Positions 6,879-41,541 of a DNA stretch of 64,000 bases are shown piece by piece (positions within the stretch are counted from its first letter, which is position 1; each line of letters opens with the position of its first letter). The translations under genes and the position numbers were made by a program. The stretch spans positions 1-64,000 of the IMG/VR virus record IMGVR_UViG_3300008267_000017; one strand, written 5' to 3'. The notes under the pieces were generated by a model. The model made no database searches and was not told where the DNA came from. It saw only the letters and a program-made list of their open reading frames with translations. This DNA is from a virus. Lineage: Duplodnaviria > Heunggongvirae > Uroviricota > Caudoviricetes.

Positions 6879-6881
6879 ATT

Positions 6882-8455: not shown

Positions 8456-8713
8456 ATTCTCTCCTCAAGTTTCAAAATAACATGTCGAAGCAGACTCCTC
8501 ATCTACCTCTAATGACAGATGTACCGTCACATCATGTGTGTAATAATTATCCATAGATGTTCTCGCAGATAACCGCACCTTTTCACGAATAATATCCATT
8601 ACAGCCTTCTCAAACTGCTCTTGTGTCTCAAATACTATCATATTCTCTCCTTATGTAATAAAAGCCTCAGAACGCTCATAATAAGACATTCCAAGGCTTC
8701 TGTCAAGTATCTT

Positions 8714-8920: not shown

Positions 8921-8930
8921 GTTGTTTCTC

Positions 8931-9128
8931 CTATTTAAATAATTTAGTTCGCATAATTAGAGCTACTAACAAAACAATAAATCCACCAAAAGAAGATAAG
9001 ATACATTGTACTATGGCTAAATCACTATTGATGAAGTCTGAGAAGCTATCTTGTTTTACATTATGCAGTGATAACAAACCTAGTAATCCTGAAGTCACCC
9101 ACATAATAATAAATAGAAATTCGATCAT
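8931..9128 (-). CDS. small membrane protein (2 predicted TM helices)
   Basis: Hydrophobic segments LFIIMWVTSGLLGLL and GFIVLLVALIM. Immediately downstream of the SPFH gene. Confidence 0.4.
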   Translation of the reverse strand: MIEFLFIIMWVTSGLLGLLSLHNVKQDSFSDFINSDLAIVQCILSSFGGFIVLLVALIMRTKLFK

Positions 9129-9129
9129 A

Positions 9130-9930: not shown

Positions 9931-9950
9931 TTTCTCCTTAAAATAAACTA

Positions 9951-10115
9951 ATAAATAACCCTGATAAAACAAGTGCAATTGTAACACAACCCCCTAAGTA
10001 CGCAACAACTTTGACAGCTTTAATCTTTTCTTTTGTATCTGATGTAGTACACCACTTTATTGCTCCGAATACAAACAAAGCAACCAATGCGAAATAAACT
10101 AGCGATAAAAGCATT
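9951..10115 (-). CDS. small hydrophobic membrane protein (about 55 aa, below the ORF-track cutoff), possible partner of the SPFH protein
   Basis: Translates MLLSLVYFALVALFVFGAIKWCTTSDTKEKIKAV... with two hydrophobic stretches. Confidence 0.3.
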
Positions 10116-10125
10116 TAATTCTCCT

Positions 10126-10977
10126 CTATACAGCCATTGGTGCAGAAATTGATGGGTGACAGTAATAATCTCCTAAATGAATATCGTCAGGTTGCAAACT
10201 CTGAATCCAATCATAAGGTGAAATATCACAATCTTCATTCCAGCCCTTCATAATTAGCCAAGGCAAATAGTATTCTTCCCGTGACAACTGCTCTTTTACT
10301 TGTTCTATGTGGTTCTCATAAATATGCACATCACCTAAGAACATCTTCAAATGTCGTGGCTTATATCCTGTAGCCTCCGCAACAATGTGCAGTAGCAATG
10401 CATACGAAGCAATATTAAAAGGAATTCCTAAGAACAAGTCACAAGATCGTTGATTCATCGTCATAGACAACTCACGAGTTTCAACATTTGCGTAAAATTG
10501 AAAATCTGTATGGCATGGAGGTAGTGCCATTTGATCTACTTTTAGTGGATTCCATGCTGTAATACGAATACGTCTACTTGTCGGGTTATTTACAATCTCA
10601 TTTAAGGCATTCTTGATCTGGTTAACACCTTCACCATTATAGTTAATCCACTGTGAGCCGTAGATACATCCAAGGTCATCCTCTCCCTTACGTACGGGAT
10701 TCTTTAACCAAGCTTCATTCTCATTTGCATTCTGGTTCCAGATATTGCAACCAAGCTTCCGAAAGTCTGCAGCATTTGTATAGCCTCGCAAGAAACCTAA
10801 TAATTCTCCCTTAACGGCATTAAAAGCAAGTTTCTTCGTAGTAATAGCTGGAAAGCCATCATTCATATCAAATGACAGCATCTCTCCAACAATAGAATAA
10901 CAAGGGATTCCTGTGCGATTGTTTTGCAAGATTCCTTCGTCCAACACCTTCTGTAATAAATTGTGATACTGTTTCAT
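10126..10977 (-). CDS. thyA: thymidylate synthase (ThyA family; a dUMP/dCMP hydroxymethylase cannot be excluded)
   Basis: RTGIPCYSIVG folate-binding region, catalytic-Cys motif ALPPCH, DLFLGIPFNIASYALL. Confidence 0.85.
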   Translation of the reverse strand: MKQYHNLLQKVLDEGILQNNRTGIPCYSIVGEMLSFDMNDGFPAITTKKLAFNAVKGELLGFLRGYTNAADFRKLGCNIWNQNANENEAWLKNPVRKGEDDLGCIYGSQWINYNGEGVNQIKNALNEIVNNPTSRRIRITAWNPLKVDQMALPPCHTDFQFYANVETRELSMTMNQRSCDLFLGIPFNIASYALLLHIVAEATGYKPRHLKMFLGDVHIYENHIEQVKEQLSREEYYLPWLIMKGWNEDCDISPYDWIQSLQPDDIHLGDYYCHPSISAPMAV

Positions 10978-11243
10978 CGTACAAGTTTTCCTTTCGGCTC
11001 TGCCTCATTTAATTCATAAACACCTATGAACGGTGGATTTGGATATTCACTATAAGTTGTTGTAAGACCCCGTATATGACTCTCAAGTTGAACAACATAT
11101 TCTCGCAAGTCTTGTATTTCTTGATGCTTGAACAAATCTAATTTGTGCGCTATGTCAAGGCAATCTGTAGAAGTAAGTTTTCTATGATAGCAACATTCAT
11201 CCACATGTTCAATATAACTTTTAATGCGTCTAAAAACAATCAT
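10974..11243 (-). CDS. hypothetical protein
   Basis: ATGA overlap with thyA. Confidence 0.4.
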   Translation of the reverse strand: MIVFRRIKSYIEHVDECCYHRKLTSTDCLDIAHKLDLFKHQEIQDLREYVVQLESHIRGLTTTYSEYPNPPFIGVYELNEAEPKGKLVR

Positions 11244-11252
11244 TCTTCTCTC

Positions 11253-11456
11253 CTATCGAATCCCATAATATTTATCAAACACAAACTCTGCCACTCCAAA
11301 TTTGTACCTTTCGTTGTAACTATTAGTACGAATTGAGGGTGTGCTGTTAGCAATCCACCTGTCAGCATCTCCCTTACGTCTATAAAACTGAGACACTTGT
11401 TGCATTGTCACTTCATTTATGACGCAATAGGCTTTTACTTTTTCAATTGTTTTCAT
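11253..11456 (-). CDS. hypothetical protein
   Basis: ORF in the array. Confidence 0.4.
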   Translation of the reverse strand: MKTIEKVKAYCVINEVTMQQVSQFYRRKGDADRWIANSTPSIRTNSYNERYKFGVAEFVFDKYYGIR

Positions 11457-11698
11457 GTGTTCTCCTTATAATCTTTCAAGATAATAGCCTTCTCTCCAGC
11501 ACATTGAAGACGTTTCATCCTGCCTTTGTAGTAGTCTGTACCAGATACTCGCACACAATGCATCTGCTTATCAATAGCGTCAACAATATAGATATTCTGA
11601 ACAGCTCTAGTCTTATTCTCTAACTCAGCATAAGCTAAATAGTCTCCCACTTTTATTTCTTCTCCAAACATGTCTTTGAACATATCATCCTCCAGCAT
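11453..11698 (-). CDS. hypothetical protein
   Basis: Overlapping stop and start. Confidence 0.4.
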   Translation of the reverse strand: MLEDDMFKDMFGEEIKVGDYLAYAELENKTRAVQNIYIVDAIDKQMHCVRVSGTDYYKGRMKRLQCAGEKAIILKDYKENT

Positions 11699-12005
11699 TA
11701 CGATTATTCATCTGTGTAGCCACTTCATCATAAACCATATCTGCAATATAGTCCTTCAACAATACGCCAAGCTGACTCTCAAATGTTGGAATCTGCTCTG
11801 GAATTTCATCTTTTGAGCGAGGGTTTAAAATGCCGAGCTTGACAGCTACATCATAATGAACAAGCTTCTTAATTTCAGTTGTATGTTGATAAGCTCCATA
11901 CCCCGCTGTATTTTCTGGAGTAGATTTCAATGATACGTTCACAAATTCCTTACGATCACCCTGCTTACCACTAATATCACAAATATATGTTGTTACAATT
12001 GCCAT
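11685..12005 (-). CDS. hypothetical protein (start refined to MAIVTT)
   Basis: ORF; the internal Met is preferred. Confidence 0.4.
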   Translation of the reverse strand: MAIVTTYICDISGKQGDRKEFVNVSLKSTPENTAGYGAYQHTTEIKKLVHYDVAVKLGILNPRSKDEIPEQIPTFESQLGVLLKDYIADMVYDEVATQMNNRNAGG

Positions 12006-15538: not shown

Positions 15539-15727
15539 TTAGGTTCATAAGTAATTTGCTAGGCTCAATTCTAGGCATATTATCAGAGTATGTCAAGAAG
15601 TTTGCATCTGATTCTTTATAATTATTGAAAAGTATCATTTCCATAGCATAAGACTTTCCGTAATGAGTGCCTCCTCCGACAATTAGAACTCTCTTATCAT
15701 CTTTTACGTAGAGTTCTTCCTTCATAC
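15525..15727 (-). CDS. hypothetical protein (start refined to MKEEL, ATGA-coupled to the recombinase stop)
   Basis: GGGTHYGKS is P-loop-like but short. Confidence 0.35.
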
Positions 15728-16372
15728 ACTCCCTTTCATAGAAATTTGCTTCTGCAACTGGTTCCATTTCGCTTCTAATTGCTTGAAAGCCTCTGCACAA
15801 GAATATTGCTTCTTGTACGTGCTTACACTTTTCTCAGATACACCATGTCGGTGAGCCACATTCATACGAGAAACACCAGCTTGCAAGTCTGCTAGGATAG
15901 CTTTGATTTTGTCTGGGGAGTTTGTTTGTCTTTTGCCAAGTATCACCCCTTCAGCTTTGCGTCTAGCTAATCCCGATATTACACGCTTCTTGATACTTTT
16001 GAGTTCATTAGCTGCCAACACAGCATGAATGTCAAACTCAATTTTATCATCCTCTCCTTGCAGAACTTTACCAATTTGAAGGATGTTAATCTTCACTCCA
16101 CGTTTGAGAAGTGTTTCAGCAATCGAGATAGTATTACCAGAGCCACGACCCCAACGGTCTACACGAGTGCTGTAAATGGTTGTGTCAGAGTCTACTTCCT
16201 CAATCATACGAGAGAACCCTGCACGTTCATACACACTCTTTGCACCACTAATTCCGTGGTCGATGTAGTAGGCATCGAATTTACCACCGATAAATTCTTC
16301 AAGCTCAAAAATTTGATTTTCTGGGCATTGATCTGTGCGCGAAACACGAGCATAAAGTACACGTTTTGACAT
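15722..16372 (-). CDS. small serine recombinase (resolvase/invertase family) with C-terminal HTH
   Basis: RVLYARVSRTDQ holds the catalytic Ser. VDRWGRGSGNTISIAETLLKRGVKINIL resembles the resolvase DRLGRS block. C-terminal HTH VSRMNVAHRHGVSEKSVSTYKK. Confidence 0.85.
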   Translation of the reverse strand: MSKRVLYARVSRTDQCPENQIFELEEFIGGKFDAYYIDHGISGAKSVYERAGFSRMIEEVDSDTTIYSTRVDRWGRGSGNTISIAETLLKRGVKINILQIGKVLQGEDDKIEFDIHAVLAANELKSIKKRVISGLARRKAEGVILGKRQTNSPDKIKAILADLQAGVSRMNVAHRHGVSEKSVSTYKKQYSCAEAFKQLEAKWNQLQKQISMKGSV

Positions 16373-25200: not shown

Positions 25201-25812
25201 TTAGTCTGTAATTTCAACTGTGAAGTTATTTAAAGCTTCGATTACTTTAGGATGTATCATTCCTTCATACTTTATTGCGAGTTCTTTAGCAAGAGCTTCC
25301 TTGTAAACTTTGTAAGCTTGGAAGGCTTCTTCTGGAGTGTCGTAGAATCCTAGATGTTTACTGCAGCTTCTGCCATCACTTGCAGTTGCTCTGTACATCC
25401 CCTTCAATTTGTAGAAGTCTACACCTATTGGATGGCTGCCTCTGTCTCCTTTCCTTTTTGTCAAGAAAGTATTAACTTGCCTTGGAATAAAGAAGCTTGT
25501 ATCCTCTGAGTAAAGTTTATTTCCTTTGAGCACAACGTCCTTGTCCAATTGATAATCTTTTAACTTAAATCCTATCTGAGACTGACACCACTCTGCGAAA
25601 TATTGAAAGTTCTTAAAATTATCAGAAGCTTCGCAACCTATATAACTAGGATACCTTACATGGAGTTTCGCAGAGTAACACCTCTCCAGCATATTTTGCC
25701 ATAAGATGTATTCTTTCGTACGTTTTCTACCGATACTTCTAAGATGTTTCCCTTTTTCAGAAACTCCGACTCCTTGCACTAACCTCTTACCCATTCTTAT
25801 TCCTCTCCTCAA
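25201..25812 (-). CDS. homing-endonuclease-like protein, paralog B (degenerate HNH-like plus AP2-like, ends ...VEITD)
   Basis: QLDKDVVLKGNKLYS and C-terminal RGSHPIGVDF...GFYDTPEEAFQAYKVYKEALAKELA. Paralog of 3499-4065 and 38758-39732. Confidence 0.6.
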   Translation of the reverse strand: MRRGIRMGKRLVQGVGVSEKGKHLRSIGRKRTKEYILWQNMLERCYSAKLHVRYPSYIGCEASDNFKNFQYFAEWCQSQIGFKLKDYQLDKDVVLKGNKLYSEDTSFFIPRQVNTFLTKRKGDRGSHPIGVDFYKLKGMYRATASDGRSCSKHLGFYDTPEEAFQAYKVYKEALAKELAIKYEGMIHPKVIEALNNFTVEITD

Positions 25813-26338
25813 TAATTTGTTTCAACTTCTCCCACACAATAGGGGTATAGTCAATATTTTCCATAGATACACAATAATACCTGTCATCCACTTCTCGACT
25901 GCCTTGCATAACATCATTGTATACTCCCACTTCTTTGCTATGTAAGTGACCATGTATGTTCATTTTATACCTAGGAATAACACTAGCAGGATGCAAAGGG
26001 ATATGACTCATAACGTAGTCATCAAATACTTTCACTCCATGCAACTTCTTGAAGTACACTAAGTATTCCTCAGCTCTCATTGTGTCGTGATTGCCCATTA
26101 CCAATTCTTTTGTGCCATTCAGTCTAGCAGCTAGTGGCAAAGCACTACGATTGATAACGAAGTCTCCTAGCACAATTACAGTGTCTTTAGGCCGTACAAC
26201 ACTGTTCCAATTAGCTATTAAAGCTTCGTTCATTTCTTCTACATCTGTCCAAGGACGTTCTTTCTCTCCATTAGGACGAAGGAAGTTTACAATCCCTCTG
26301 TGTCCTAAGTGCATATCAGCACAAACGAATGTGGTCAT
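25787..26338 (-). CDS. calcineurin-like metallophosphoesterase
   Basis: Motifs CADMHLGH (DxH), VLGDF (GD), MGNHD (GNHD), and IHGHLH. Confidence 0.8.
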   Translation of the reverse strand: MTTFVCADMHLGHRGIVNFLRPNGEKERPWTDVEEMNEALIANWNSVVRPKDTVIVLGDFVINRSALPLAARLNGTKELVMGNHDTMRAEEYLVYFKKLHGVKVFDDYVMSHIPLHPASVIPRYKMNIHGHLHSKEVGVYNDVMQGSREVDDRYYCVSMENIDYTPIVWEKLKQIIEERNKNG

Positions 26339-27842: not shown

Positions 27843-28235
27843 TTACAAACTATTAGCTAAGGCTTGCAACTCTTCCAACGAAGCCTCAGACAACTTCTCA
27901 TCTTGCTTTTCAGCAATTAATGAAAGAATCTTCTGTTTCTTAGCAGCATTTTCAGCCAACAACTTAGCAGCATCACGTTCTGACACTTTAACATCAATAA
28001 TGTGCTTCACAATATCAAACTTCTGTTGTGATACAGTGTTGTCATTCACAGATGGTGTTACGAAAGAGATAGTCTCTTCTTTCAGTTGGGAATGCAACTC
28101 CTTAGCAATAGCATCCAAGCTTGCAGAACGAGCTGATGTGAGTGGAAGGTTCCACAAGTCTTCTACAGACAATGCACCTACTTGAGAGTTGAAACGATAT
28201 TGCTTACGTGTTGCCAGTTCAAATAAATTAGACAT
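27843..28235 (-). CDS. hypothetical coiled-coil protein
   Basis: ORF followed by a terminator. Confidence 0.45.
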   Translation of the reverse strand: MSNLFELATRKQYRFNSQVGALSVEDLWNLPLTSARSASLDAIAKELHSQLKEETISFVTPSVNDNTVSQQKFDIVKHIIDVKVSERDAAKLLAENAAKKQKILSLIAEKQDEKLSEASLEELQALANSL

Positions 28236-28249
28236 ATAATTCTCCTTAA

Positions 28250-30316
28250 TTAAAATACAATTTTCAATACACGAGTGAAAGAGCCATTAACACGGCACAC
28301 AACACTATTCTTTTGGGTACTACTAAATCCTACACCAGATAGTTGAGCTTCAGCTATACCTGTCTTAAGCTTACTACCGACCATCTCCAACACTTTACGA
28401 TGCTTATCAAGCTCTGGAGACAAGAACTCGTTATAGAAGCCACGAGCTACATCTTCATTATTACATCCTTCTAGCATAAAGAAGTAATGTTTGTTCCCAA
28501 CTTCTTGCTCATCCCAGAAGTTAGGAGACAACATAATGGATTTTACAGGAACAAACTTGTTTGTGTCAACATCCCAGATTGTTTTAGAAGCACTTTCTGG
28601 TTTCAAATGATGTTCAATAGTGAAAACACCATTCTTCAAAATAACTTCAGCAACTGTAACCCATTCTTTATCTTTTAATGGTTTATCGTATTCATATTCG
28701 TACACAACACCACCAAATTCAATCTCAGCTTTAAAACCTCCTTGCGTTGGGGAGCGGAAACGCCAATTATGAATTTTACAAATATACTTACCTTCAGGCA
28801 TACGGCTGATATCTGGGAAAGTGATATTCTCTACAGGGACATATCCAGCAGGGGCTTCACTAGTGAAGTCAACATCTTGGACACCTCCAGAACTAGTGTG
28901 CTGACGTTTATTCCAACCTACACGTTCATTATTACCATAGTTATCATGAATACCATTCTCAGGAGTATTCTTATTAGCTGGCATAAACACATGTAAATCC
29001 ATTAATGAGCAATTACGCTTGTCGTAGTTCCAAGTATGGGAGAAACGGAATGCTCCAGAGACACTACCTCCACGAGCCACAACTTGCTTACGTAAATCAG
29101 AGTCTGCAAAGTCCCCTGTATAGCTCCACGAGAATTTATTATTCCATTTAAACATATTTGGAGCTGTCACATCAACAGGAGCAATTAAGCTGACAAAGTT
29201 ATTCTTGTGGGAGTTCTCTAACATCAATTCTACTGACGTTGCAGTAGGAAGTACGTCCTTTAAAAACTTCTCAATGGAGATTTCTTCTACACCAGACATT
29301 TCCTTCTGTTTTGTCTTAGCTGTAGGCTTCAAGTCATCCAGAATAGAACCTGTTAATTGTTTCTTCACAGCACGATTGGCAAACAATACATTACTGATAG
29401 AAATATCATCTAATGTAGCATATCGACGTTCTAAAGCAGATGTGTATCCAAGAGCTTCAATTGTTTCTTTAGCATTATCAATCATCTTCTGTGTTACAAG
29501 AGCTGTAGGGCGTTTGTAGTTAGCTGGAGCTACTTTCTGTTCAAATGATTTAACAGCTTTTTCTAAATCTTCCCCATCAGAGAGGTCTGTAAGCAAGCTA
29601 CCAATCACTGTGTTACGAATACGACCTGCATGAGCACTACCATCAATATATTGCCATACGAACAGCTCTTTATTCTCAGCTTTATCAAATTCAGCTTTAA
29701 GCTTCTTGAATGACACAACATTAGCCTTGTGTTCTTCTCCCCGATATAAGCTATTCTGTGCAATCAGTTCTAACACAGTGTCAATCGCATCAACAGTGAT
29801 TTCTTTCAAGCCTCGTAGTGTGACATCATAAGCAGCTTTAGCTTCACCTTGCAATGTACCAATTCTATCTTTGTTGAATACAAATTTAGTAGGAAGATTT
29901 ACATAGAAATGCTCCCATGTTGTAGCGCCAGATACTGTGGCTTCAAAGTTCTTGTCTGTTCCAACATGGTTTTCATAATGCATAAACTTATTGCTGACAG
30001 CCTTAGACTTTACAAGAGCTGACAAAGCATCTGCAACAACTTGGTAAGCTGGCTCACTAGGGATAGAGATGTCCCAGATAGAGACAAGCTTGTTATCTAC
30101 AATGGTGACAACATTCCCCATGTTACGGATGAATTGTTTGCAGCAAGAGCAATCATGCTCTGTACGCTCACGGAATATAGGGTTACTACCTTGTGGGAAT
30201 GCTTGCAAGTAGGTTTCATTCAGGTCAACACCCTCTACGTTGACAGTGAACAAGCCTGTAGCTTGCATAGCTTGGAATTGTTTTTGTACAGCTTGTTTAA
30301 AAGTAATAAAGTTCAT
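28250..30316 (-). CDS. large hypothetical protein (688 aa), function not recognised
   Basis: Long ORF with an AAGGAGAGAATATG RBS and an upstream promoter. N-terminal HDCSCCKQF cluster. No confident motif match. Confidence 0.6.
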   Translation of the reverse strand: MNFITFKQAVQKQFQAMQATGLFTVNVEGVDLNETYLQAFPQGSNPIFRERTEHDCSCCKQFIRNMGNVVTIVDNKLVSIWDISIPSEPAYQVVADALSALVKSKAVSNKFMHYENHVGTDKNFEATVSGATTWEHFYVNLPTKFVFNKDRIGTLQGEAKAAYDVTLRGLKEITVDAIDTVLELIAQNSLYRGEEHKANVVSFKKLKAEFDKAENKELFVWQYIDGSAHAGRIRNTVIGSLLTDLSDGEDLEKAVKSFEQKVAPANYKRPTALVTQKMIDNAKETIEALGYTSALERRYATLDDISISNVLFANRAVKKQLTGSILDDLKPTAKTKQKEMSGVEEISIEKFLKDVLPTATSVELMLENSHKNNFVSLIAPVDVTAPNMFKWNNKFSWSYTGDFADSDLRKQVVARGGSVSGAFRFSHTWNYDKRNCSLMDLHVFMPANKNTPENGIHDNYGNNERVGWNKRQHTSSGGVQDVDFTSEAPAGYVPVENITFPDISRMPEGKYICKIHNWRFRSPTQGGFKAEIEFGGVVYEYEYDKPLKDKEWVTVAEVILKNGVFTIEHHLKPESASKTIWDVDTNKFVPVKSIMLSPNFWDEQEVGNKHYFFMLEGCNNEDVARGFYNEFLSPELDKHRKVLEMVGSKLKTGIAEAQLSGVGFSSTQKNSVVCRVNGSFTRVLKIVF

Positions 30317-30402: not shown

Positions 30403-31668
30403 TTAAGCTAATTCCTTATAATCTTTCCCATCAATTGTAACAGTAACAGGAACCATTCCTTCTGTCCTCAGATACTTCCTGTACATATTCCCCATAATCT
30501 CTTGTAGCCAATTCTTATGTGTTGTTTGCACAATAAAGCTATCATGGATGGGGAGCACCACAACATCATCCTCCACTCCAGCAGATATTATCTCTAAAGC
30601 TATCTCACTGTCAAGGTTTTGCAGCTTATATGCTAAAGGCTTACTCTGCCACAATATCACTTGTAATGGAAGGAATGAATAGGCTTCCTCAATCTTAGAT
30701 AGTAACACACTACCACTTCTGATTGTACACTCTCTGTTTTTTAGGTTCAAGTATTGCTGTATTGCTGAACAAGCTATATGTCTCTTAGAATTATTAAGGA
30801 GAATATTGAAAGCTCTCTTCACAGCTTCCCTGTTAGCATCTATCATTTGTTCTTCCTGTGTTAGAGGGAGGAGATAGGCATCAACCCCATAAGGCACTTT
30901 ATCTGTGCATAAGTACATATCAATAAGCATTCTTAAATGCAATGCACTATAATCAATCTCTACAGCAGACACACCATTTATCATGATAGACTGTCTATAG
31001 CAACTCTTAATATTCTGTATCTCAGAGCGATAGAGCCTTCCTGTAAAACCTATTTCTTGATTAAAGATACGAGTAAGGCAGCAATTAGCTTCATGCACTA
31101 TATTGTCCTTGTCAGAGTAGGTTATGTGTTGATCTGCTATGTATTGGTTGTATGTTGTCAAACTATCTCTAGTATATCTTGTAACATCACATTCCTTGTA
31201 GTCTACCATATTCTTATCCTTGTCTTTTAAAACAACTCTTTGTGTATCAACAACAATTGTCTTCTTACTATCTATAGCATTACTACCTGTAGAGAACATA
31301 TTCATTAGGAGGTCTGTAGCAACAAAAGAGCTAGAGATAGCTTCATGGTCGTAATAGCCATAATCCCTAGGAGAGATGTTGTTTACTATGTACCCTTCTT
31401 TCTCTAGAAATTCTAATGCTTTAATTATTCCATATACACTCAATTGTTTAGGATTATATTTCTTAGGCAGTACACTCTGACTCTTGCTTCTGGAATAAAA
31501 TATATTCTTTCCTTTGTTAGCTAGGACATTAACAACAATAACCCCTATCTCTTTCTTCCACTTACAATTCATCCATCTTACTTTACCCACTATAGCTCTA
31601 GGTACTTTAACACTAAGAGAGATGAATACACCACTCCTATCTATAATACTATCATCTTCCATAAACAC
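30403..31668 (-). CDS. compact family-A polymerase-like protein: palm motifs A (EIDYSALHLRM), B-like (REAVKRAFNILL) and C (LPIHDSF), with a novel 175-aa N-domain and no exonuclease domain
   Basis: DYSALHLRM matches Pol I motif A DYSQIELR. Motif C is HDS, as in T7 RNAP (HDSFG), not the HDE of DNA polymerases. A to C spacing is 137 aa. Confidence 0.5.
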   Translation of the reverse strand: MFMEDDSIIDRSGVFISLSVKVPRAIVGKVRWMNCKWKKEIGVIVVNVLANKGKNIFYSRSKSQSVLPKKYNPKQLSVYGIIKALEFLEKEGYIVNNISPRDYGYYDHEAISSSFVATDLLMNMFSTGSNAIDSKKTIVVDTQRVVLKDKDKNMVDYKECDVTRYTRDSLTTYNQYIADQHITYSDKDNIVHEANCCLTRIFNQEIGFTGRLYRSEIQNIKSCYRQSIMINGVSAVEIDYSALHLRMLIDMYLCTDKVPYGVDAYLLPLTQEEQMIDANREAVKRAFNILLNNSKRHIACSAIQQYLNLKNRECTIRSGSVLLSKIEEAYSFLPLQVILWQSKPLAYKLQNLDSEIALEIISAGVEDDVVVLPIHDSFIVQTTHKNWLQEIMGNMYRKYLRTEGMVPVTVTIDGKDYKELA

Positions 31669-31765
31669 TCCTCCATACTACTTACTTATTGATACCCCTA
31701 TAAAGGGAAAGAATAATGCTGAAACCCAATACCAGCTTAGGTTTCAAGCCATTTTAGTTAAGTAA

Positions 31766-32176: not shown

Positions 32177-32334
32177 TTCACACTCCCTTCCACAACAGCA
32201 AGCACACGGTTTGTATTGACAGCCTTCTTAATACGATTAATCTCCATATCAATATCATCAACAGCCTCTGGAGAGTCATCTAGTAATTTACCTAATGTGC
32301 CATCTAGTTTTCGATAGTAGTAATGTACGTTCAT
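32176..32334 (-). CDS. small protein (52 aa)
   Basis: ATGA overlap on both sides. Confidence 0.3.
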
Positions 32335-33146
32335 TTAGTTCCCTTTCCTACATTTTGGTTGCGAGCACTCACTTTACTCTTTGATAGGGTAAACGGGGTT
32401 TCAATAATATTCTTTAAGAACATTCCATCAATATCATCTACACAGTGATTTAATACAACACTGCGTTTGAAATGTGTATCACCTTTGTGAAATTTAAGAA
32501 GCTCTTCTGGAATCTTGCTTACAACTTCATTCTTGAAGCTGAATGTACCGTATTTAAAGAACTCTGGCAAATCTTCCCAAGAATTACCAGCTTCATGTAG
32601 CATTTGTATCTTTTGTTCACTATTTTTGTGCATGATAGCTTTATGTCCAAATACAGTGTGAGCTGCCATAGAGATAGAGTTCTTTTTAGCGTCAAGCCAG
32701 CGCCATTTGAGAACATTCTCTACGTCTTCCAAATCTGGTACATTGAATACACGACAATCGAAGAAAGCTAATATATCTGACTTCTCTGTGATAGTTGTAC
32801 TAAGTTCTTTGTTAAATTTAGCTGTTGCCATACTTGCAAGTACAGATGAAAGCTTCTGAACCCTGCCTCCGAACAATGTTTGTTGATGTGGTGCAGTGAT
32901 GTAATAAATCAATGTAATCTCATCACTCTGGGTGTACCCGATCTTGGCATCAGTTTTCTCCACTAAATAATTCATGGTGTCAATCATTACATCTGAAAGA
33001 CGTTTATCAAATGGACGTGCCAACCCTTTGCAAAACGTGTGAAAAGCCTTGCCATCAAGTCGAACACATATTGGATTCTTTTCATCTAAGTGTTGCTCAG
33101 AGTCTTTTTCATAAGCTTTGATAACATCCCCTAATTTGTCGTTCAT
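32331..33146 (-). CDS. Thg1-like protein (tRNA-His guanylyltransferase family 3'-5' nucleotidyltransferase)
   Basis: ICVRLDGKAFHTF matches Thg1 VVRLDGRNFHRF. IGYTQSDEITLIY matches IAYGQSDEYSFVF, which carries the catalytic carboxylates. Confidence 0.8.
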   Translation of the reverse strand: MNDKLGDVIKAYEKDSEQHLDEKNPICVRLDGKAFHTFCKGLARPFDKRLSDVMIDTMNYLVEKTDAKIGYTQSDEITLIYYITAPHQQTLFGGRVQKLSSVLASMATAKFNKELSTTITEKSDILAFFDCRVFNVPDLEDVENVLKWRWLDAKKNSISMAAHTVFGHKAIMHKNSEQKIQMLHEAGNSWEDLPEFFKYGTFSFKNEVVSKIPEELLKFHKGDTHFKRSVVLNHCVDDIDGMFLKNIIETPFTLSKSKVSARNQNVGKGTK

Positions 33147-33285
33147 TGTTTCCTCCTAAGTTGTTTGTCACATCGACAGGCAACACTCTACACAACAAAA
33201 TTATCCTTGTCAAGATAATTCTCCATAAAATAAAAGCCCTCGCACATTTCTGTGAAAGGGCTTCAACTTCGTTAGAAGTTATTTC

Positions 33286-33840
33286 TTATTGTTTACAAAT
33301 AGTGGCAGACAAGCTATCTCTGGTATAACGAGTAATATCACATTCTTTATACCCTACAGTATTCTTACTGTCATCCTTTAACACAACCCTCTGTGTATCA
33401 ACCACTACTGTCTGTTTACTGTTGATAACATTTCTACCTATAGAGAATAAGTCAATTAGTTTATCTGTTGCTATAAAGCTACTTGACATAGCTTCATGGT
33501 CATACCAACCAAAGTCTCTAGGTGCTATGTTATTGATGACATATCCTTCAGCTTCTAAATACTCTAGAGCTTTGATTATCCCCCTGTTTGTTATTCCTTT
33601 AGGATTATATTGCTTTGGTAACATAGCTTCTGCTGTATCTCTATTGTAGAATATATTCTTTCCTTTATGAGCTAGTACATTAACGACAATAACACCTATC
33701 TCTTGCTTATATCTACAATTCATATACCTTACTTTGCTACTAACTCCTCTAGGTACTTTAACACTGAGAGAGATGAATACACCACTCATGTCTATTACAT
33801 CTATATCCATATCTAATCTCCTTATCCTATTCAATGACAC
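33286..33840 (-). CDS. truncated paralog (N-domain only, 184 aa) of the polymerase-like gene at 30403-31668
   Basis: More than 60 % amino-acid identity over about 170 aa (SGVFISLSVKVPR...GVIVVNVL..KGKNIFY...TVVVDTQRVVLKD). The DNA is about 70 % identical, including the flanking upstream sequence. Confidence 0.5.
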   Translation of the reverse strand: MSLNRIRRLDMDIDVIDMSGVFISLSVKVPRGVSSKVRYMNCRYKQEIGVIVVNVLAHKGKNIFYNRDTAEAMLPKQYNPKGITNRGIIKALEYLEAEGYVINNIAPRDFGWYDHEAMSSSFIATDKLIDLFSIGRNVINSKQTVVVDTQRVVLKDDSKNTVGYKECDITRYTRDSLSATICKQ

Positions 33841-33946
33841 CCCTTATAGTTCCTTATTAGATACTACCCCTATAATAAGCAGAAATTGCAGTGCAAATGC
33901 CTTGAAAGCCTTTACCAGTATAGCTTTCAGCGATATTCTACATAAT

Positions 33947-34174
33947 TTATTTCCAGTGTTTAGGCCGAAACACCCACTCTCCATTGTGCTTGTGAGTTGC
34001 CAGTTCAACATGCAGTCCATTAAACTTAGTTCCAAATGTCATTTTACGACCTCTGACACTCCACACAACAATTTCACCCTTCTTAGAAACCAGTGTCATG
34101 TGATCGTCTGAGCTACTTACCACTTCCCCTGTGAGTGAGTTCACAACTCTGTATTTGAATCCTGCATTAGTCAT
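33947..34174 (-). CDS. hypothetical protein, paralog of 26906-27196
   Basis: See 26906-27196. Confidence 0.45.
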   Translation of the reverse strand: MTNAGFKYRVVNSLTGEVVSSSDDHMTLVSKKGEIVVWSVRGRKMTFGTKFNGLHVELATHKHNGEWVFRPKHWK

Positions 34175-34270
34175 ATACGCTCCATAAATGTGTTTGTCGA
34201 ATCGACAGAACGAATATTAAAGGAATCGAAGATAAATGTCAACACAACCCTCTAAGATATTTGAAATCTA

Positions 34271-35053: not shown

Positions 35054-35803
35054 TCAATCATAAGCTGTTTCTAAGTCTTTAAAAGCCCTAGTAGCAGGGT
35101 CGTACTGCGGTGTAAGTACTTCCCCATCAACTTTCTTCTTACGTGGCTTAGATGGCTTTTTAAGCGCCTTCTGAGCGGCTTTCTCGAGCTTTTCTACTTG
35201 CTCCTTATACCAAGCATTGCGTTGCTCAGAACGTTCCATCCAGCCTTGAGCATCCAACCAGATATTCTTTCCTAGCATCATTTCATCAAACTCTTGATCT
35301 GACAAGAATCCTGAATAGATTTCCTTGTAATATTCGTACAAGAACTTCTTGTCAAAATCACTCTTAGCATGGTACTCATTTAAGTTACCAAAACTACCAC
35401 TAGAACCGTTATGGATCAAGCTGTTAAAGTTACGAGACAGTTCAAAACTATCTGCTTGTAATAATATGTGTGTTCCTGCTGAATGCACTCCTCCAGAGGC
35501 TACGATGTGTATTGGACAAGCACATTTCTCCATAGCGTGAATGAACCCACCTGACACATCAACATTTCCACCGCAACTTTGTAAACTGATAACTACTTGA
35601 TCGCCCTCTTCAGCAGCTTCAAGGGCTTCAATACCCATTGTCACTTGCTCCATGCTAATAACAGGAGCGTGGAAGTTGATCTTGAACACACCTGTTTTAT
35701 TTGGGGTGTAGGAGACAGTGATTCGATTGTTGTCTTGGTATTCTTCTGAGAAGTTATTGCGAGCTTGTAGCTTGTTGATATTTTCTTTATAATTTGGTTT
35801 CAT
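35054..35803 (-). CDS. ClpP/S14-S49-family serine peptidase-like protein, a second copy outside the structural module
   Basis: SCGGNVDVSGGFIHAM and IVASGGVHSAGTHILL match the ClpP fold GG...S..G. Lys-rich C-terminal tail. Confidence 0.55.
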   Translation of the reverse strand: MKPNYKENINKLQARNNFSEEYQDNNRITVSYTPNKTGVFKINFHAPVISMEQVTMGIEALEAAEEGDQVVISLQSCGGNVDVSGGFIHAMEKCACPIHIVASGGVHSAGTHILLQADSFELSRNFNSLIHNGSSGSFGNLNEYHAKSDFDKKFLYEYYKEIYSGFLSDQEFDEMMLGKNIWLDAQGWMERSEQRNAWYKEQVEKLEKAAQKALKKPSKPRKKKVDGEVLTPQYDPATRAFKDLETAYD

Positions 35804-35812
35804 GTGTTCTCC

Positions 35813-36553
35813 TTAGTACCCTGATTTATCAAACGCAATAATCAAATCTTTACAAGTCTTGCTACGCACAATATGTTCATAGGAATCAAAATCAATACGT
35901 GCAACAGATTCTTTTAACCGAGGGTTTTTATCAATGATTTGTGAGAAAATAGCAAGACCGCTCTCTTTATTTAGTGCAGATTGTGCAACGTCCCCGCAAA
36001 GAATCATTTTACAGCCTCCTCCACGAGTGATGATAGATTTAATCTCAGAAATTTTACAGTCTTGGACTTCGTCCGCTATAACCCATGTACCTCTTCCATA
36101 ACTCATCCCTTTGATTGTCTCTAAAGGCTGTAGTTGAATATTACCATCTGCAATTGCTTCATCAACTACATCTTTACCCATGCGTTGATACAACACAGAT
36201 AACATTGGCATAATCCAGTTCTTCACTTTCATGTCCTTATCACCACCAAAGTAACCAAGACTCTTAGAGTCTGACACAGAGGGTCTAGTAAGTACAATCT
36301 TATTACAAACCCCTGTTCGCCATGCGTCTGCAGCCATACAAGTTGCAATAAATGTCTTCGAGGAACCTGCGAAACCTGTTGCGACAATCAAATCATAGTC
36401 TTTGATAGCTTTGAAGTATTCGGCTTGCCGTTCGTTCATCGGAACAATTGGTTTACTTTCAATTTCAAGTTTACGCTGCTCCAAGAATTTCTCTTTGATT
36501 ACAGGTGCAGTTTCAGGGGATTTTTTAGTTTTTTTGCTAATTACGCGAGCCAT
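35813..36553 (-). CDS. phoH: PhoH-family ATPase
   Basis: Walker A GFAGSSKT (PhoH GPAGTGKT), Walker B VIADEVQD, and C-terminal GDVAQ. Confidence 0.8.
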   Translation of the reverse strand: MARVISKKTKKSPETAPVIKEKFLEQRKLEIESKPIVPMNERQAEYFKAIKDYDLIVATGFAGSSKTFIATCMAADAWRTGVCNKIVLTRPSVSDSKSLGYFGGDKDMKVKNWIMPMLSVLYQRMGKDVVDEAIADGNIQLQPLETIKGMSYGRGTWVIADEVQDCKISEIKSIITRGGGCKMILCGDVAQSALNKESGLAIFSQIIDKNPRLKESVARIDFDSYEHIVRSKTCKDLIIAFDKSGY

Positions 36554-37909: not shown

Positions 37910-38101
37910 TTGTAAAGAATATAGCTTACTTGTAAGAAGGAAAGTGTACTTAATCGGGTTAGACCAGTTTTACTCCTCCCGAAGAACGGACTTCTCGGCA
38001 ACACCTCCGTCTTTGTATAGTGCTATTTAATATGGTGTGCAGCCACCGTGTATGTCAGATTGAGAAGCAACTCTGACAATAAAGATAAACTTCTCGCCAA
38101 T

Positions 38102-38176
38102 GCATCCTTAGCTCAATGGTGGAGCGAGTGCCTTCCAAGCACAAGGTCGAGAGATCGGTACTCTCAGGATGCTCCA
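38102..38176 (+). tRNA. tRNA-Gly (anticodon UCC) with a non-canonical T-loop
   Basis: 7-bp acceptor stem with G1:C72 and C2:G71, discriminator U and encoded CCA. D-arm GCUC/GAGC. Anticodon loop CUUCCAA is identical to E. coli tRNA-Gly(UCC). T-stem GAGAG/CUCUC with loop AUCGGUA instead of UUCGAAU. Confidence 0.55.
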
Positions 38177-38351
38177 TTAGAATATTAAAACGACAATCCT
38201 CCACTGAGTCTCCTCCGTGTCCTCCTCCTTCACGGTTCTCCTATCAGTGTTGTAGGGTTGTCCTTTTAGTGTTTTAACAGTAGTGGTGAGAGGAGAAGAT
38301 ATGTTCTCCCGAGATAGCAGCAAGGTTAGTGTGGTGTGCTATCATTATGTG

Positions 38352-38380
38352 TTGACAGGGCTGTGTTATTACGTTACAAT
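38352..38380 (+). promoter_or_regulatory. sigma70-like promoter TTGACAGGG-17-TACAAT
   Basis: -35 at 38352-38357, -10 at 38375-38380. Confidence 0.45.
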
Positions 38381-38422
38381 TCTGTTTCACTATATTTTAG
38401 TAACAACCAAAAGGAGAAAATA

Positions 38423-38757: not shown

Positions 38758-39732
38758 ATGGAAAAGAAAAGAGTACATTCAAATAAGCCGCAAATTAGTG
38801 TTGGAGATGTTTTCAAGACGAATTGTTATGGAGATGTGGAAGTAATTGAATACCTTAACGCGAATAAAATCAAGGTGAAGTTCATAGTTGACGGATACCA
38901 GAGATACACAACATCTGGTAATTTGCAAAAGGGTAAAGTGAAGAATCCCACTATACCAACTATTGAACATGCAGGAAGAGCATCGAAGAATGTTTGTATT
39001 GGTGGAATCTATAAGAACACAAATGGATTGCAATTCAAAGTAGTTGAATACACAGATGCAAAGAATGTTAAAGTGGAGTTTGAGTCTGGTTATATTACAA
39101 ACTGTTCTCTTCAACGAGTTCGTGACGGAGGAATATCTGATAACTTCTCTCCATCCAGATTTCAAGGGTATTTAGGTACTTTAGTAGGTGTTGAAGTTAA
39201 AAACGTGGCAAAGACTAAGGAGCATATTCACTGGTCAAGTATGTTAGCAAGATGTTTCTGTGAGGAATACCAAGATAAGTATCCGACTTATAAAGGTACA
39301 ACTATCTGTGAAGAGTGGTTAAATTTTACAGTTTTTGCTAAATGGTGTAGAGAACAGCCTGAGTTTTTGTTGGGACATAGAGTTTTTCTGGATAAGGATA
39401 TTCTAAATAAAGGAAACAAGCACTATAGTCCAAATACATGTACTTTTGTCCCTCACGCTGTTAATACTTTGTTTACTAAAGCGGATGCAAGCAGAGGTAA
39501 GTATCCTATAGGGGTGTCTTATTGCACAACTCGAAATACAATAACTGCCTGTGTCCGCATTGATAAGCGAACTAAATACTTGGGCAGGTTTGCAAATGCC
39601 ACTGATGCATTCTACGCATACAAGAAAGCAAAAGAGGTTTATATTAAAGAACTTGCTGAGAAATTTAAAACAGTTATTTCAAACGAGTGTTACTTAGCAA
39701 TGTACAGGTATGAGGTTGAAATAACAGATTAG
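38758..39732 (+). CDS. homing-endonuclease-like protein, paralog C (N-terminal extension, degenerate HNH-like, AP2-like, ends ...VEITD), immediately upstream of the terminase gene
   Basis: FLDKDILNKGNKHYS and C-terminal RGKYPIGVSY...LGRFANATDAFYAYKKAKEVYIKELA. GAGGAGCAAAATATG RBS. Confidence 0.6.
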   Translation: MEKKRVHSNKPQISVGDVFKTNCYGDVEVIEYLNANKIKVKFIVDGYQRYTTSGNLQKGKVKNPTIPTIEHAGRASKNVCIGGIYKNTNGLQFKVVEYTDAKNVKVEFESGYITNCSLQRVRDGGISDNFSPSRFQGYLGTLVGVEVKNVAKTKEHIHWSSMLARCFCEEYQDKYPTYKGTTICEEWLNFTVFAKWCREQPEFLLGHRVFLDKDILNKGNKHYSPNTCTFVPHAVNTLFTKADASRGKYPIGVSYCTTRNTITACVRIDKRTKYLGRFANATDAFYAYKKAKEVYIKELAEKFKTVISNECYLAMYRYEVEITD

Positions 39733-39739
39733 AGGTAAA

Positions 39740-40120
39740 ATGGTTAAAAAAGAAAGAGTAAAGTTCCAGCCGTGTAGTGAAAAACAACGGCTGATTCTCA
39801 TGGATAACACTACAGATGTCATCCTCATAGGAGGCGGAGCTGGGGGAGGCAAGTCTCGGATTTGTTTAACAAAGAACTTAGATGGCATTAAAGATTCAAA
39901 GTTCAGGTGTGTAATCCTTCGGCGCTTTGAGCCAGAGCTTAAAAAACAAGGTGGATTGATTGATGAGTCCAAAAACGTCTATCCGCACTTTACAAAAATA
40001 CCTTATAAAAGTCAACAAAAATTATGGGAATTTCCATCTGGAGCAACCATAGGATTTTCTGCAATTTCTTGCGATGACGACCTTGGAAGTTGGCAAGGTA
40101 GTCAATTAACGCGTAAATAA
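39740..40120 (+). CDS. terminase large subunit, exon 1 (ATPase N-terminus with Walker A)
   Basis: Walker A ILIGGGAGGGKS preceded by a Q-motif-like region. The ORF ends about 90 aa after Walker A, where Walker B is expected. Confidence 0.8.
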   Translation: MVKKERVKFQPCSEKQRLILMDNTTDVILIGGGAGGGKSRICLTKNLDGIKDSKFRCVILRRFEPELKKQGGLIDESKNVYPHFTKIPYKSQQKLWEFPSGATIGFSAISCDDDLGSWQGSQLTRK

Positions 40121-40377
40121 TGCGCCTTTATTTAGAAATAGGTAAAGCAAACTCATTGAATTCAGGGGAAGCGTAGAACACGTTATCCTGATCTAAGCCT
40201 AAATACAACTCAGAAATAAAGTATGAGAAGAAAGTGTTAGGAAAGAGCAACGACTATCCTGAAAGGGAGTACACTCAAGTGAGTGGAAGCGGTGAGAATC
40301 CTCTATAGAGGATTATGATATAGTCTGATCTGTATAGGGATATACAGCGGCTTGAATAAAGCGGAGTAAGAGTAACG
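40115..40377 (+). mobile_element. ORF-less group I intron (about 263 nt) in the terminase large subunit gene, inserted just before the Walker B codons
   Basis: R element CAACGACUAU at 40248-40257 and S element GAUAUAGUCUG at 40317-40327 form P7 (GACUAU/AUAGUC). P8 hairpin AAUCCUCUA/UAGAGGAUU. Candidate P1 with the U40114.G40122 wobble at the 5' splice site. Omega-G at 40377 gives an in-frame join ...GSQLTR-NLFEHLILIDEA. Exact junctions are tentative. Confidence 0.65.
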
Positions 40378-41541
40378 AACTTATTTGAACACTTGATTTT
40401 AATTGACGAAGCTGCAGATAAGTGGACTGAGAAACAAGCCTTGTTTTTGCAGTCTCGATTGCGTACAGTTGGCTCTGATATCCACCCACAACTGGTTATG
40501 TCCTGCAACCCAGACCCTAATAGTTTCTTATTTGAATGGGTTAAGTTCTGTCTTGATGAAGACACAGGAGTTCCAAAAGAAGGTACTGAGCATCTTATTA
40601 GATGGTTCTGTGTAGAGGATAACAAAGCTAAATGGGCTGGTAGTCCAGAAGAGTGCTATGAATTATATGGTGCTCCTAAGAATCTAATTTATGCTCATGG
40701 AATGACAGAAGAACAAATGAATACCTTCTCTAAAGAAGAGAAGATGAGGTTATTCATGCCTAAGTCATTTAGGTTTATCCCAACTGGTGTTTTTGACAAC
40801 CCTTATCTACTTCCCCCGAAGAATACAAGTTACCTAGCTTCCTTATTATCTCAACCTCATGTGAATCAGTTAAAATTTCTTCACGGAAGTTGGACTGCAA
40901 GAGAAGAAGGTAGTATGTACTTCGACAGAAAATGGGTGGAGATTGTTGACTTCCCTCCTGTCAATGCTACAGCTAGGGTTAGAGCTTGGGACTTTGCTTC
41001 AGAAGAGAAGACAAAAACTAACAATCCCGATTGGACAGCAGGTGTAAAAATGTCTAGGGATAGAAATGGTATTTACTATATCGAAGATGTTGTCCGTATC
41101 CAAGCTCGTACTGATAAAGTATTAAAAACTGTTATTGAAACAGCTAAATCTGACGGACTGAACGAATGTGATGTGTGTATTCCAGTTGACCCTGCAGCAG
41201 CAGGTAAAACAGCAGCGCACTTCTATCTTAAAGTGTTGGCAGAGAATGGAGTGGCAGCAAAGAAAGCACAATCTTCTGGACACAGTAGCAAACTTACACG
41301 TTTCAAACCATTCTGTTCTTTAGCAGAAAGTGGCAGCGTGAAAGTAGTTAGAGGTGAATGGAATGATGCATTCTTTGCAGAACTTGAAGCCTTCTCTGGT
41401 GAAAAAGCAATCGAGAGAACTCAAAAGAATGACCAAGTGGATGCTACCTCAGATAGTTTTAACCTTCTAGCAAGACAGTTACAACTGCCTACATTTAGTA
41501 TTCCTAGCCTCACTAAAGCTTCTCCAGTACCAACAATATAA
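40378..41541 (+). CDS. terminase large subunit, exon 2 (Walker B LILIDEA and C-terminal nuclease domain)
   Basis: Walker B hhhhDE LILIDEAADKW. The frame is open from 40360. The C-terminal region is consistent with an RNaseH-like terminase nuclease. Confidence 0.8.
   Translation, partial: NLFEHLILIDEAADKWTEKQALFLQSRLRTVGSDIHPQLVMSCNPDPNSFLFEWVKFCLDEDTGVPKEGTEHLIRWFCVEDNKAKWAGSPEECYELYGAPKNLIYAHGMTEEQMNTFSKEEKMRLFMPKSFRFIPTGVFDNPYLLPPKNTSYLASLLSQPHVNQLKFLHGSWTAREEGSMYFDRKWVEIVDFPPVNATARVRAWDFASEEKTKTNNPDWTAGVKMSRDRNGIYYIEDVVRIQARTDKVLKTVIETAKSDGLNECDVCIPVDPAAAGKTAAHFYLKVLAENGVAAKKAQSSGHSSKLTRFKPFCSLAESGSVKVVRGEWNDAFFAELEAFSGEKAIERTQKNDQVDATSDSFNLLARQLQLPTFSIPSLTKASPVPTI

Follow-up and report, generated by a model that had tools for sequence, protein, structure and literature searches.

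What does a bacteriophage gain from an enzyme that builds RNA in the 3'-5' direction? This question is raised by a gene of the tailed-phage record IMGVR_UViG_3300008267_000017, of which positions 1 to 64,000 were analysed and are referred to here as the window. The gene lies on the minus strand and encodes a Thg1-like protein (TLP), a relative of tRNA-His guanylyltransferase (Thg1). In vitro, TLPs repair 5'-truncated tRNAs. For the TLP of the window we propose, at a probability of roughly 60%, that it restores 5'-truncated tRNAs during infection by templated 3'-5' repair, and that it does so as an accessory early function.

Identity of the encoded protein

The gene was delimited as follows.

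32331..33146, minus strand: TLP coding sequence, 271 aa, assigned by its open reading frame (ORF) and by matches to Pfam, PHROG, the Bacillus thuringiensis enzyme BtTLP, and AlphaFold2/Foldseek

An ORF check of the window showed that the reading frame runs from ATG to stop. The start codon is credible, because the sequence AGGAGG is located 5 nt upstream and the N-terminus aligns with those of homologs. The protein matched the Pfam profile PF04446 (Thg1) with 111.9 bits (cut-off 29.2; E 2.6e-32), residues 8-137 covering the full 130-position model, and PHROG 4717 ("tRNA-His guanylyltransferase") with E 8.6e-77. Its nearest solved relative is BtTLP (4kgk), which HMMER aligned to residues 3-204 with E 1.3e-35; this match rose to E 3.4e-59 when a profile was used. 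The Thg1 enzymes of yeast, Candida and human reached E 3.6e-11 or weaker, and the archaeal enzymes also scored far below BtTLP. Among 5.8 billion proteins searched, 7358 were homologs with E<=1e-10; no NCBIfam model matched. We regard it as near certain that the protein is a member of the Thg1/TLP superfamily and of its bacterial TLP type. The initial annotation, a Thg1-like 3'-5' nucleotidyltransferase, is thus borne out by the Thg1 profile and by the conserved carboxylates described below. Of the two Pfam domains expected at that time, Thg1 was recovered, whereas Thg1C (PF14413), which a few homologs carry, gave no match at E<=1. Despite this missing match, the C-terminal half was modelled confidently and superposes on full-length Thg1/TLP structures.

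Catalytic residues and motifs

For an assignment of catalytic residues, alignment A1 was used, which consists of the TLP and 45 homologs. Invariant columns were mapped on residues of BtTLP, yeast Thg1 and human Thg1, whose roles were taken from the literature (PMC3701042). The elements and correspondences are:

33033..33071, minus strand: catalytic block 1, ICVRLDGKAFHTF, residues 26-38, with R29 (binding of the incoming nucleoside triphosphate, NTP) and D31 (metal carboxylate); aligned to BtTLP R28/D30 and yeast R27/D29, invariant in A1
32904..32942, minus strand: catalytic block 2, IGYTQSDEITLIY, residues 69-81, with S74, D75 and E76; aligned to BtTLP S74/D75/E76, invariant in A1
32667..32693, minus strand: DAKKNSISM, residues 152-160, at the position of the eukaryotic HINNLYN motif; HMMER alignments to BtTLP and yeast Thg1
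Metal carboxylates: TLP D31, D75, E76; BtTLP D30, D75, E76; yeast D29, D77, E78; human D29, D76, E77
Nucleotidyl-transfer residues: TLP R29, K98, R132; BtTLP R28, K99, R131; yeast R27, K96, R133
Salt-bridging Glu: TLP E13; BtTLP E12; yeast E13
Activation-step Ser: TLP S74; BtTLP S74; yeast S76
Base-stacking residue: TLP M160; BtTLP M158; yeast N161

The residues E13, R29, D31, S74, D75, E76, K98, R132 and M160 are all invariant in A1. The two peptides which had been quoted initially as catalytic blocks are blocks 1 and 2 of this list and align to the catalytic residues of BtTLP; likewise, the carboxylates D31, D75 and E76, on whose conservation the identification had been made to depend, are present and invariant among the aligned homologs. 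Judged by these residues, the TLP appears catalytically intact, with one conservative change (Lys to Arg44), and by analogy with the characterised enzymes it is probably active.

The third element of the list bears on the substrate. HINNLYN is specific for eukaryotes, and its His154 stacks on the GUG anticodon (PMC6471195). The corresponding residues are KKNSISM (154-160) in the TLP and SKNSISM in BtTLP, and the position of yeast N161, which serves in the activation step, holds a methionine (M160) instead of an asparagine. Because HINNLYN is absent, the protein was classified as a bacterial-type TLP and not as an enzyme adding G-1 to tRNA-His; by its sequence, it is not a dedicated tRNA-His guanylyltransferase of the eukaryotic type. 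Since both HINNLYN and His154 are lacking and methionine replaces asparagine, it is not expected to add a non-templated G-1 opposite A73. A templated variant of this activity would place or restore G-1 across from C73 in the tRNA-His of the host or of the phage, for instance if a phage tRNA-His gene lacked an encoded G-1 or if infection altered RNase P processing. We consider a TLP dedicated to this task rather unlikely. Database annotations do name the family for tRNA-His activity, TLPs are capable of templated G-1 addition opposite C73 of tRNA-His (PMC3061083), and they retain a second binding mode which depends on the anticodon (PMC4820378). However, the motif that reads the anticodon is missing here, BtTLP kinetically favours truncated tRNAs of any identity (PMC3061083), and bacteria normally encode G-1 in the genome, as stated in the same paper. 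Moreover, no tRNA-His gene was found in the 64-kb window, and no tRNA at all in the 5.3 kb beyond its right end, which were obtained from short NCBI fragments of this phage via exact protein look-ups.

Predicted fold and tRNA-binding hairpin

An AlphaFold2 model of the TLP was built on A1; it reached a mean predicted local distance difference test score (pLDDT) of 92.1 and a predicted template modelling score of 0.89. All 32 Foldseek matches in the Protein Data Bank (PDB) with E<0.001 were Thg1/TLP structures, BtTLP being the first. They were followed, at E 0.01 or weaker, by palm domains of GGDEF proteins and nucleotide cyclases, which is usual for a protein of this fold. The target-normalised template modelling scores to 4kgm/4kgk were 0.66-0.83, and the alignments to full-length Thg1 comprised 250-279 columns. 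At its C-terminus, the model has a long helix (residues 241-268), which is common to a subfamily of TLPs of about 277 aa according to both the model and A1. It also contains a beta-hairpin with strands 201-211 and 225-234, the second of which includes the following element.

32457..32471, minus strand: FKRSV, residues 226-230, second hairpin strand with the invariant R228; AlphaFold2 model, A1 and profile alignment to 5axk

In the profile alignment to 5axk, R228 is aligned to R216 of the Methanosarcina acetivorans enzyme (MaTLP), next to R215, with an uncertainty of one residue. In MaTLP, R215 contacts the tRNA elbow and helps to measure the length of the acceptor stem (PMC4820378). On the strength of the model, the tRNA-elbow hairpin with its conserved arginine appears to be kept in the TLP.

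Replacement of a gene behind a shared putative promoter

The TLP is located in a minus-strand arm, with the genes of PhoH and ClpP on one side and a conserved module of a 688-aa and a 130-aa protein (p688-p130) on the other. The surroundings of the gene contain these features:

33286..33840, minus strand: 184-aa N-terminal remnant of a second allele of the gene for a 421-aa protein (p421), directly upstream of the TLP unit; recombination junction, recognised by its identity to p421 and to relative L120
33223..33264, minus strand: terminator-like hairpin (33233-33264) plus U-tract, closing the preceding transcription unit directly ahead of the promoter; RNA fold
33185..33213, minus strand: putative sigma-70-like promoter TTGACA-17-TAGAGT, found by a consensus scan; backbone feature common to relative L122
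33162..33179, minus strand: leader motif CTGTCGATGTGACAAACA, an imperfect palindrome; 2 matches in the window versus 0.06 expected, kept in L122
33152..33157, minus strand: Shine-Dalgarno sequence AGGAGG, 5 nt upstream of the TLP ATG and within the swapped-in segment; sequence
32335..33160, minus strand: approximate extent of the swapped-in segment (Shine-Dalgarno sequence and TLP ORF, about 0.83 kb); an unrelated 65-aa ORF is at the same position in L122
31766..32334, minus strand: three small ORFs (53, 61 and 71 aa; orf53, orf61, orf71) downstream of the TLP, with stops and starts overlapping or nearly abutting; ORF list
31719..31747, minus strand: weak terminator-like hairpin after the 71-aa ORF; fold -14.1 kcal/mol, z -2.0

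The relatives L122 and L120 were reached via homologs of p421 and compared by blastn and pairwise alignments. In L122, an 84.4-kb JGI contig, PhoH and the protein p124 are 98% and 99% identical to those of the window. Its genes are arranged in the order ClpP, promoter region, 65-aa ORF, homologs of orf53 and orf61, several genes, and homologs of orf71 and p421; a TLP is absent from L122. The stretch 33239..33149, which comprises the tail of the terminator, the promoter and the leader, shows 82% nucleotide identity to positions 6185-6277 of L122. Homology ends near 33160, just upstream of the Shine-Dalgarno sequence of the TLP, and restarts near 32340-32349, about 15 nt before the TLP stop and at the start of orf53. 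The TLP is a swapped-in gene in the first slot behind a shared, putative early-type promoter, and it is accessory, because an unrelated 65-aa ORF fills the same promoter-proximal slot in L122. An import of the promoter together with the TLP is ruled out, as terminator, promoter and leader also precede the 65-aa ORF there.

The start of the 53-aa ORF overlaps the TLP stop codon (ATGA), and the weak hairpin behind the 71-aa ORF is followed by the 421-aa gene. The small ORFs were considered as partners of the TLP. This was ruled out, since their homologs occur in L122 without a TLP (61%, 48% and 76% amino acid identity for the 53-, 61- and 71-aa ORFs, respectively) and none were found at 14 other TLP loci.

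A second junction is marked by L120. The stretch 34242..33307 has 89-90% nucleotide identity to this relative, ending within its p421 homolog. The 184-aa remnant is 87% identical in amino acids to the L120 allele (90% in nucleotides, up to 33307) and 69% identical to residues 5-172 of p421; a direct repeat (31159-31644 and 33310-33795) with a spacing of 2151 bp connects the two copies. Both the remnant and the repeat are explained by a fragment of an L120-type allele lying beside the resident p421 gene. From the junctions with L122 and L120 it follows that the arm is a recombination mosaic in which the TLP is accessory. In addition, no TLP was found within 9 kb at 18 IMG/VR loci carrying the p688-p130 module.

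The hairpin upstream of the promoter has a folding energy of -18.5 kcal/mol (z -3.7), and none of 200 shuffled sequences was as stable. The second copy of the leader motif (34191-34208, minus strand) is located upstream of a 75-aa ORF and includes the palindrome TGTCGA-T-TCGACA. The consensus of the motif is CTGTCGAT(GT/TC)GACAAACA, and it occurs directly downstream of two putative TTGACA-type promoters, one preceding the TLP and the other the 75-aa ORF; a common regulator may use it as an operator. An apparent repeat of the promoter at 34056-34081 (repeat family D5) was discarded, as it falls within the 75-aa ORF itself and is probably due to chance.

Origin and distribution

A megablast search of positions 31-35 kb of the window against GenBank phages gave no match, i.e. 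the lineage is absent from that collection; its portal protein shows about 39% identity to the portal proteins of Pseudomonas myophages with genomes of 85-100 kb. The closest TLP is 91% identical and was found where the same type of phage had been sampled elsewhere. The next closest are the TLPs of about 277 aa (55-61% identity), which are encoded on contigs with 29-31% G+C and are absent from GTDB representative genomes. The best matches in these genomes, mostly from Myxococcota and Planctomycetota, do not exceed 50% identity, and GenBank phage TLPs do not exceed 46%. In a rough neighbour-joining tree, the TLP was placed inside the clade of about 277 aa and apart from the GenBank phage TLPs. 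As it groups with this metagenomic clade, the tree suggests that the gene was acquired independently of the GenBank phage TLPs. The acquisition was not recent, because the G+C content of the TLP (37.3%) matches that of the window (38.6%). On the contigs of the 277-aa clade (L004-L007; P0004, P0014, P0022), about half of the genes have no Pfam match; on one of them, an RlaP nucleotidyltransferase gene is two genes away from the TLP.

These data also bear on the possibility that the TLP is a neutral passenger, gained by recombination and unused by the phage. Relatives without a TLP and a recombination junction in a highly mosaic arm would fit this idea, which we nevertheless regard as very improbable: the ORF is intact and its catalytic residues are conserved, the gene has a strong Shine-Dalgarno sequence and a promoter-proximal position, a 91%-identical variant exists in other samples, and a G+C content near that of the window and not at the 29-31% of the nearest homolog loci argues for long residence.

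Phage TLP genes are already widely annotated, and the gene described here adds no new kind. Homologs are present in 160 GenBank phage records; among the matches listed, most are annotated as tRNA-His guanylyltransferase, and a member of the 90%-identity cluster of the TLP carries the JGI label "tRNA(His) 5'-end guanylyltransferase". The cluster members P0122 and P0146 are encoded on a contig of 85,969 bp. Phage homologs of Thg1 were noted in 2010 (PMC2904730), and a survey of jumbo phages from 2021 lists the Thg1 homolog as a sporadic 5'-end restoration enzyme (PMC7824862). In the literature searched, no experimental study of a phage TLP was found.

tRNA and RNA-repair context

The window encodes a single tRNA.

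38102-38176, plus strand: tRNA-Gly(UCC), sole tRNA in the window; tRNA and Rfam scans

In this tRNA, all seven pairs of the acceptor stem are perfect, and the CCA is encoded. It is located in a non-coding stretch of about 500 nt (37910-38420), where the minus- and plus-strand arms diverge, and is flanked by CTCC-rich runs without Rfam match. A relaxed Rfam scan of about 36.5-38.8 kb detected no additional tRNA-like or truncated tRNA sequences. Owing to its perfect acceptor stem and encoded CCA, tRNA-Gly(UCC) was ruled out as a molecule in need of 5' repair or editing, and the maturation of the phage's own tRNA, which had been offered initially as one purpose of the enzyme, finds no support here. 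The same observations speak against 5'-editing of the kind known from amoebozoan mitochondria, by which the TLP would mature phage tRNAs that have mismatches or overlaps at the 5' end. DdiTLP3 does perform such editing in mitochondria (PMC6471195), and TLP-bearing phages often have tRNA genes nearby; with one faultless tRNA and no further tRNA-like sequence around it, we think that this function is hardly to be expected in the phage studied here.

In other phages, the neighbourhood of the TLP is more telling. At 6 of 11 sampled GenBank phage loci, RNA-repair or tRNA genes were found at a distance of at most 8 kb from the TLP:

Vibrio phage D148: CCA-adding enzyme, second nucleotidyltransferase, RNA ligase, polynucleotide kinase and phosphoesterase, all within 6 kb of the TLP
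Mycobacterium phage Bombitas: polynucleotide kinase two genes downstream of the TLP
Aeromonas phage 2L372D: tRNA nucleotidyltransferase 1 kb downstream of the TLP
Cronobacter phage GAP32: RlaP-type nucleotidyltransferase near the TLP
Rhodococcus phage Weasels2: tRNA-Met and 2'-5' RNA ligase near the TLP
Shewanella phage 1/4: tRNAs 5 kb downstream of the TLP

An association of bacterial TLPs with polynucleotide kinase and the idea of tRNA repair were published in 2010 (PMC2904730). In L120, positions 6876-11746, downstream of the p421 homolog, contain genes for NADAR, Macro and a T4 Rnl1-type RNA ligase. Because L120 carries these genes there, the arm is one that collects genes for RNA repair and for the reversal of ADP-ribosylation in this phage group. 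In the window, a metallophosphoesterase gene (PHROG 547; 25787-26338, minus strand) is 6 kb away from the TLP. Homologs of PHROG 547 with about 30% amino acid identity are 1-5 kb from the TLP in D148 (L012 11448-11885) and Weasels2 (L119 3178-3756); this could be a weak recurrence or, since the family is widespread, a coincidence.

With respect to other RNAs, the Rfam scan of the window detected the tRNA and a group I intron only and thus no candidate structured RNA near the TLP. A non-tRNA substrate would imply that the enzyme extends or adenylylates the 5' ends of small RNAs or transcripts, or that it produces App-RNA for ligation. RNA ligation via 5'-App formation was proposed by Anantharaman et al. 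(PMC2904730), and some TLPs have roles outside tRNA, as in the case of Dictyostelium TLP4 with its distinct biological function (PMC5041481). The single tRNA of the window, together with the lack of repair partners found there, would be in line with such a substrate. On the other hand, the hairpin and arginine that read the tRNA elbow are conserved, the closest characterised enzymes work on tRNA, and no structured RNA offers itself nearby. We therefore judge a function on RNAs other than tRNA to be unlikely.

Proposed function

The preferred reading, i.e. the restoration of 5'-truncated tRNAs, is modelled on the characterised enzymes. BtTLP and MaTLP catalyze Watson-Crick templated addition to 5'-truncated tRNAs, which they prefer, without G bias and for any tRNA identity (PMC3061083, PMC4820378). 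Characterised TLPs hold the tRNA by acceptor stem and elbow, make no use of the anticodon, and stop when the stem has full length (PMC4820378). According to a 2025 preprint (PMC12632743), all TLPs studied but one repair truncated tRNAs in vitro. By analogy, a dimer or tetramer of the phage enzyme would bind tRNA by acceptor stem and elbow, using the hairpin with R228, independently of the anticodon. A 5'-monophosphate end would be activated with ATP or GTP; a 5'-triphosphate end would not need activation. Two metal ions would be held by D31 and D75, with E76 supporting R29, and NTPs would be added in 3'-5' direction, with the 3' strand of the acceptor stem as the template and with removal of pyrophosphate, until the stem is full length. 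The restored tRNAs would keep translation going during infection. That tRNA is the substrate and that the phage benefits from its repair during infection we infer from these relatives.

Several observations weigh against this proposal. The activation-step lysine (BtTLP K43, yeast K44) is replaced by R44 in the TLP and by arginine in at least 90% of the subfamily. In BtTLP, K43 is important for ATP-dependent but not for GTP-dependent activation (PMC3701042); it is a speculation that R44 shifts the activator preference between ATP and GTP. The TLP is dispensable, as relatives without it exist. Among the window ORFs of at least 100 aa, neither an RNA ligase, nor a polynucleotide kinase, nor a CCA-adding or RlaP gene was detected by PHROG, Pfam and NCBIfam; the window represents 64 kb of a probable genome of about 86 kb, so that about 22 kb lie outside the view, and scans of viral_contigs and metagenome_contigs with exact patterns yielded none of this remainder. 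The other 5 of the 11 sampled phage TLP loci have hypothetical neighbours only, without an annotated RNA-repair gene. Finally, we know of no defence system that truncates the 5' ends of tRNAs, and the damage to be repaired is therefore hypothetical.

A role of the TLP in counter-defence or tRNA repair is plausible. In its most specific form, the enzyme would counteract a hitherto undescribed host system that attacks the 5' acceptor-stem ends of tRNAs, and phages would swap TLP genes into early slots for this purpose. We put this forward tentatively, as a possible but not a probable explanation; PADLOC gave no defence-related match for the TLP or its neighbours. If it were true, the pair of TLP and 65-aa ORF in this phage and in L122 would mark hosts with such a nuclease, and a first physiological role of bacterial and phage TLPs would be at hand. 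Independently of this explanation, the presence of a TLP or a 65-aa ORF behind the same promoter in close relatives is a natural experiment on when a 3'-5' RNA polymerase pays for a virus.

Neighbouring genes and other features of the window

Two larger genes are located downstream of the TLP unit.

30403..31668, minus strand: 421-aa minimal family-A-polymerase-like protein, PHROG 4756, without Pfam match; AlphaFold2 (pLDDT 91) and Foldseek
27843-30316, minus strand: 688-aa protein, PHROG 1735 / Pfam DUF8224; PHROG and Pfam scans

The model of the 421-aa protein was matched by Foldseek to Pol I, Pol theta and apicoplast Pol with a probability of 1.0 and E of about 1e-5. Invariant residues are D239 of motif A, R280/K284 of motif B, and a motif C resembling that of T7 RNA polymerase, HDSF (H375-D376-S377-F378). 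The protein comes in addition to the ordinary split DNA polymerase of the phage. Its family has about 99 members from phages and some Rhizobiales, one of which is fused to a reverse-transcriptase domain. The truncated 184-aa allele, 2.1 kb upstream of the full gene, lacks the palm motifs and has a ratio of nonsynonymous to synonymous substitution rates of 0.13 relative to the full copy. A functional tie between the TLP and the 421-aa gene is unsupported, as relatives carry the latter without a TLP and the two genes are 7-33 kb apart in other phages. The 688-aa protein, initially regarded as an orphan, belongs to PHROG 1735 / DUF8224 and has 18 IMG/VR homologs; at 14 of these 18 loci it is paired with the downstream 130-aa protein (PHROG 2018).

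Several genes of the window are interrupted, and it holds many insertions of the homing-endonuclease type. A group I intron (Rfam RF00028, 83 bits; 40105-40347) appears to split the large terminase gene (39740-41541, plus strand), one part being a 126-aa ORF that extends to 40120 and the other a 382-aa ORF that begins at 40393 and contains the terminase C-terminal domain. An HNH endonuclease gene (6882-7439) divides the ATP-dependent DNA ligase into two ORFs (7432-8349 and 6357-6878), and the DNA polymerase is distributed over at least two (103-1389 and 1395-1910). Additional HNH genes are found at 3499-4065 and 25201-25812. PhoH and ClpP, which are adjacent in the window (35803-35813), are separated in L120 (1020-1814) and L122 (4577-5374) by an HNH-like gene of 264/265 aa. 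Homologs of this gene are located elsewhere in the window (38758-39732 and 25201-25812), which is consistent with a mobile endonuclease. A homolog of serine recombinases / DNA invertases (PHROG 125; 15722-16372, minus strand) is present in an otherwise lytic-looking myophage backbone.

Comparison with known systems

The logic proposed here, a phage restoring damaged tRNAs, resembles the T4-type repair by Pnk and Rnl1. That system heals and seals breaks in the anticodon loop, whereas the TLP would extend 5' ends, and such partners were not found in the window; T4-type repair genes cluster with the TLP in D148, and Rnl1 is encoded in the same arm of L120.

Eukaryotic Thg1 (human 3OTB, Candida 3WBZ, yeast 5XOX) shares with the TLP the palm fold, an active site with two metal ions and a chemistry in three steps. 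It differs by the HINNLYN motif and His154, which read the GUG anticodon; the TLP has neither, and it has methionine for asparagine at the N161 position. The enzyme of Methanosarcina acetivorans (PDB 5AXK-5AXN) agrees in fold, and the beta-hairpin arginine reading the tRNA elbow appears to be kept, but it belongs to an archaeal lineage and is only about 21% identical.

The phage TLPs of PHROG 4717 (GAP32 gp147, D148 VPHD148_0112, Bacillus phage Bc431v3 orf143) are likewise accessory genes in the early or nucleotide-metabolism arms of large phages. D148, Bombitas and Weasels2 have an RNA ligase or kinase nearby, in contrast to the window. What is new here is the clean slot replacement, and the occurrence of a TLP in a phage of medium size (about 86 kb) whose part seen encodes one tRNA and shows no repair partners.

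BtTLP (PDB 4KGK, 4KGM) is the best match in both sequence and structure, with about 40% identity over residues 3-204. It is a chromosomal protein of 245 aa, whereas the phage-borne TLP has 271 aa and a long C-terminal helix; in addition, Lys43 of BtTLP corresponds to Arg44, and R16' to E17. The carboxylates, the NTP-binding residues and the methionine at the N161 position are common to both proteins, and by analogy the same activity would be expected for the phage enzyme.

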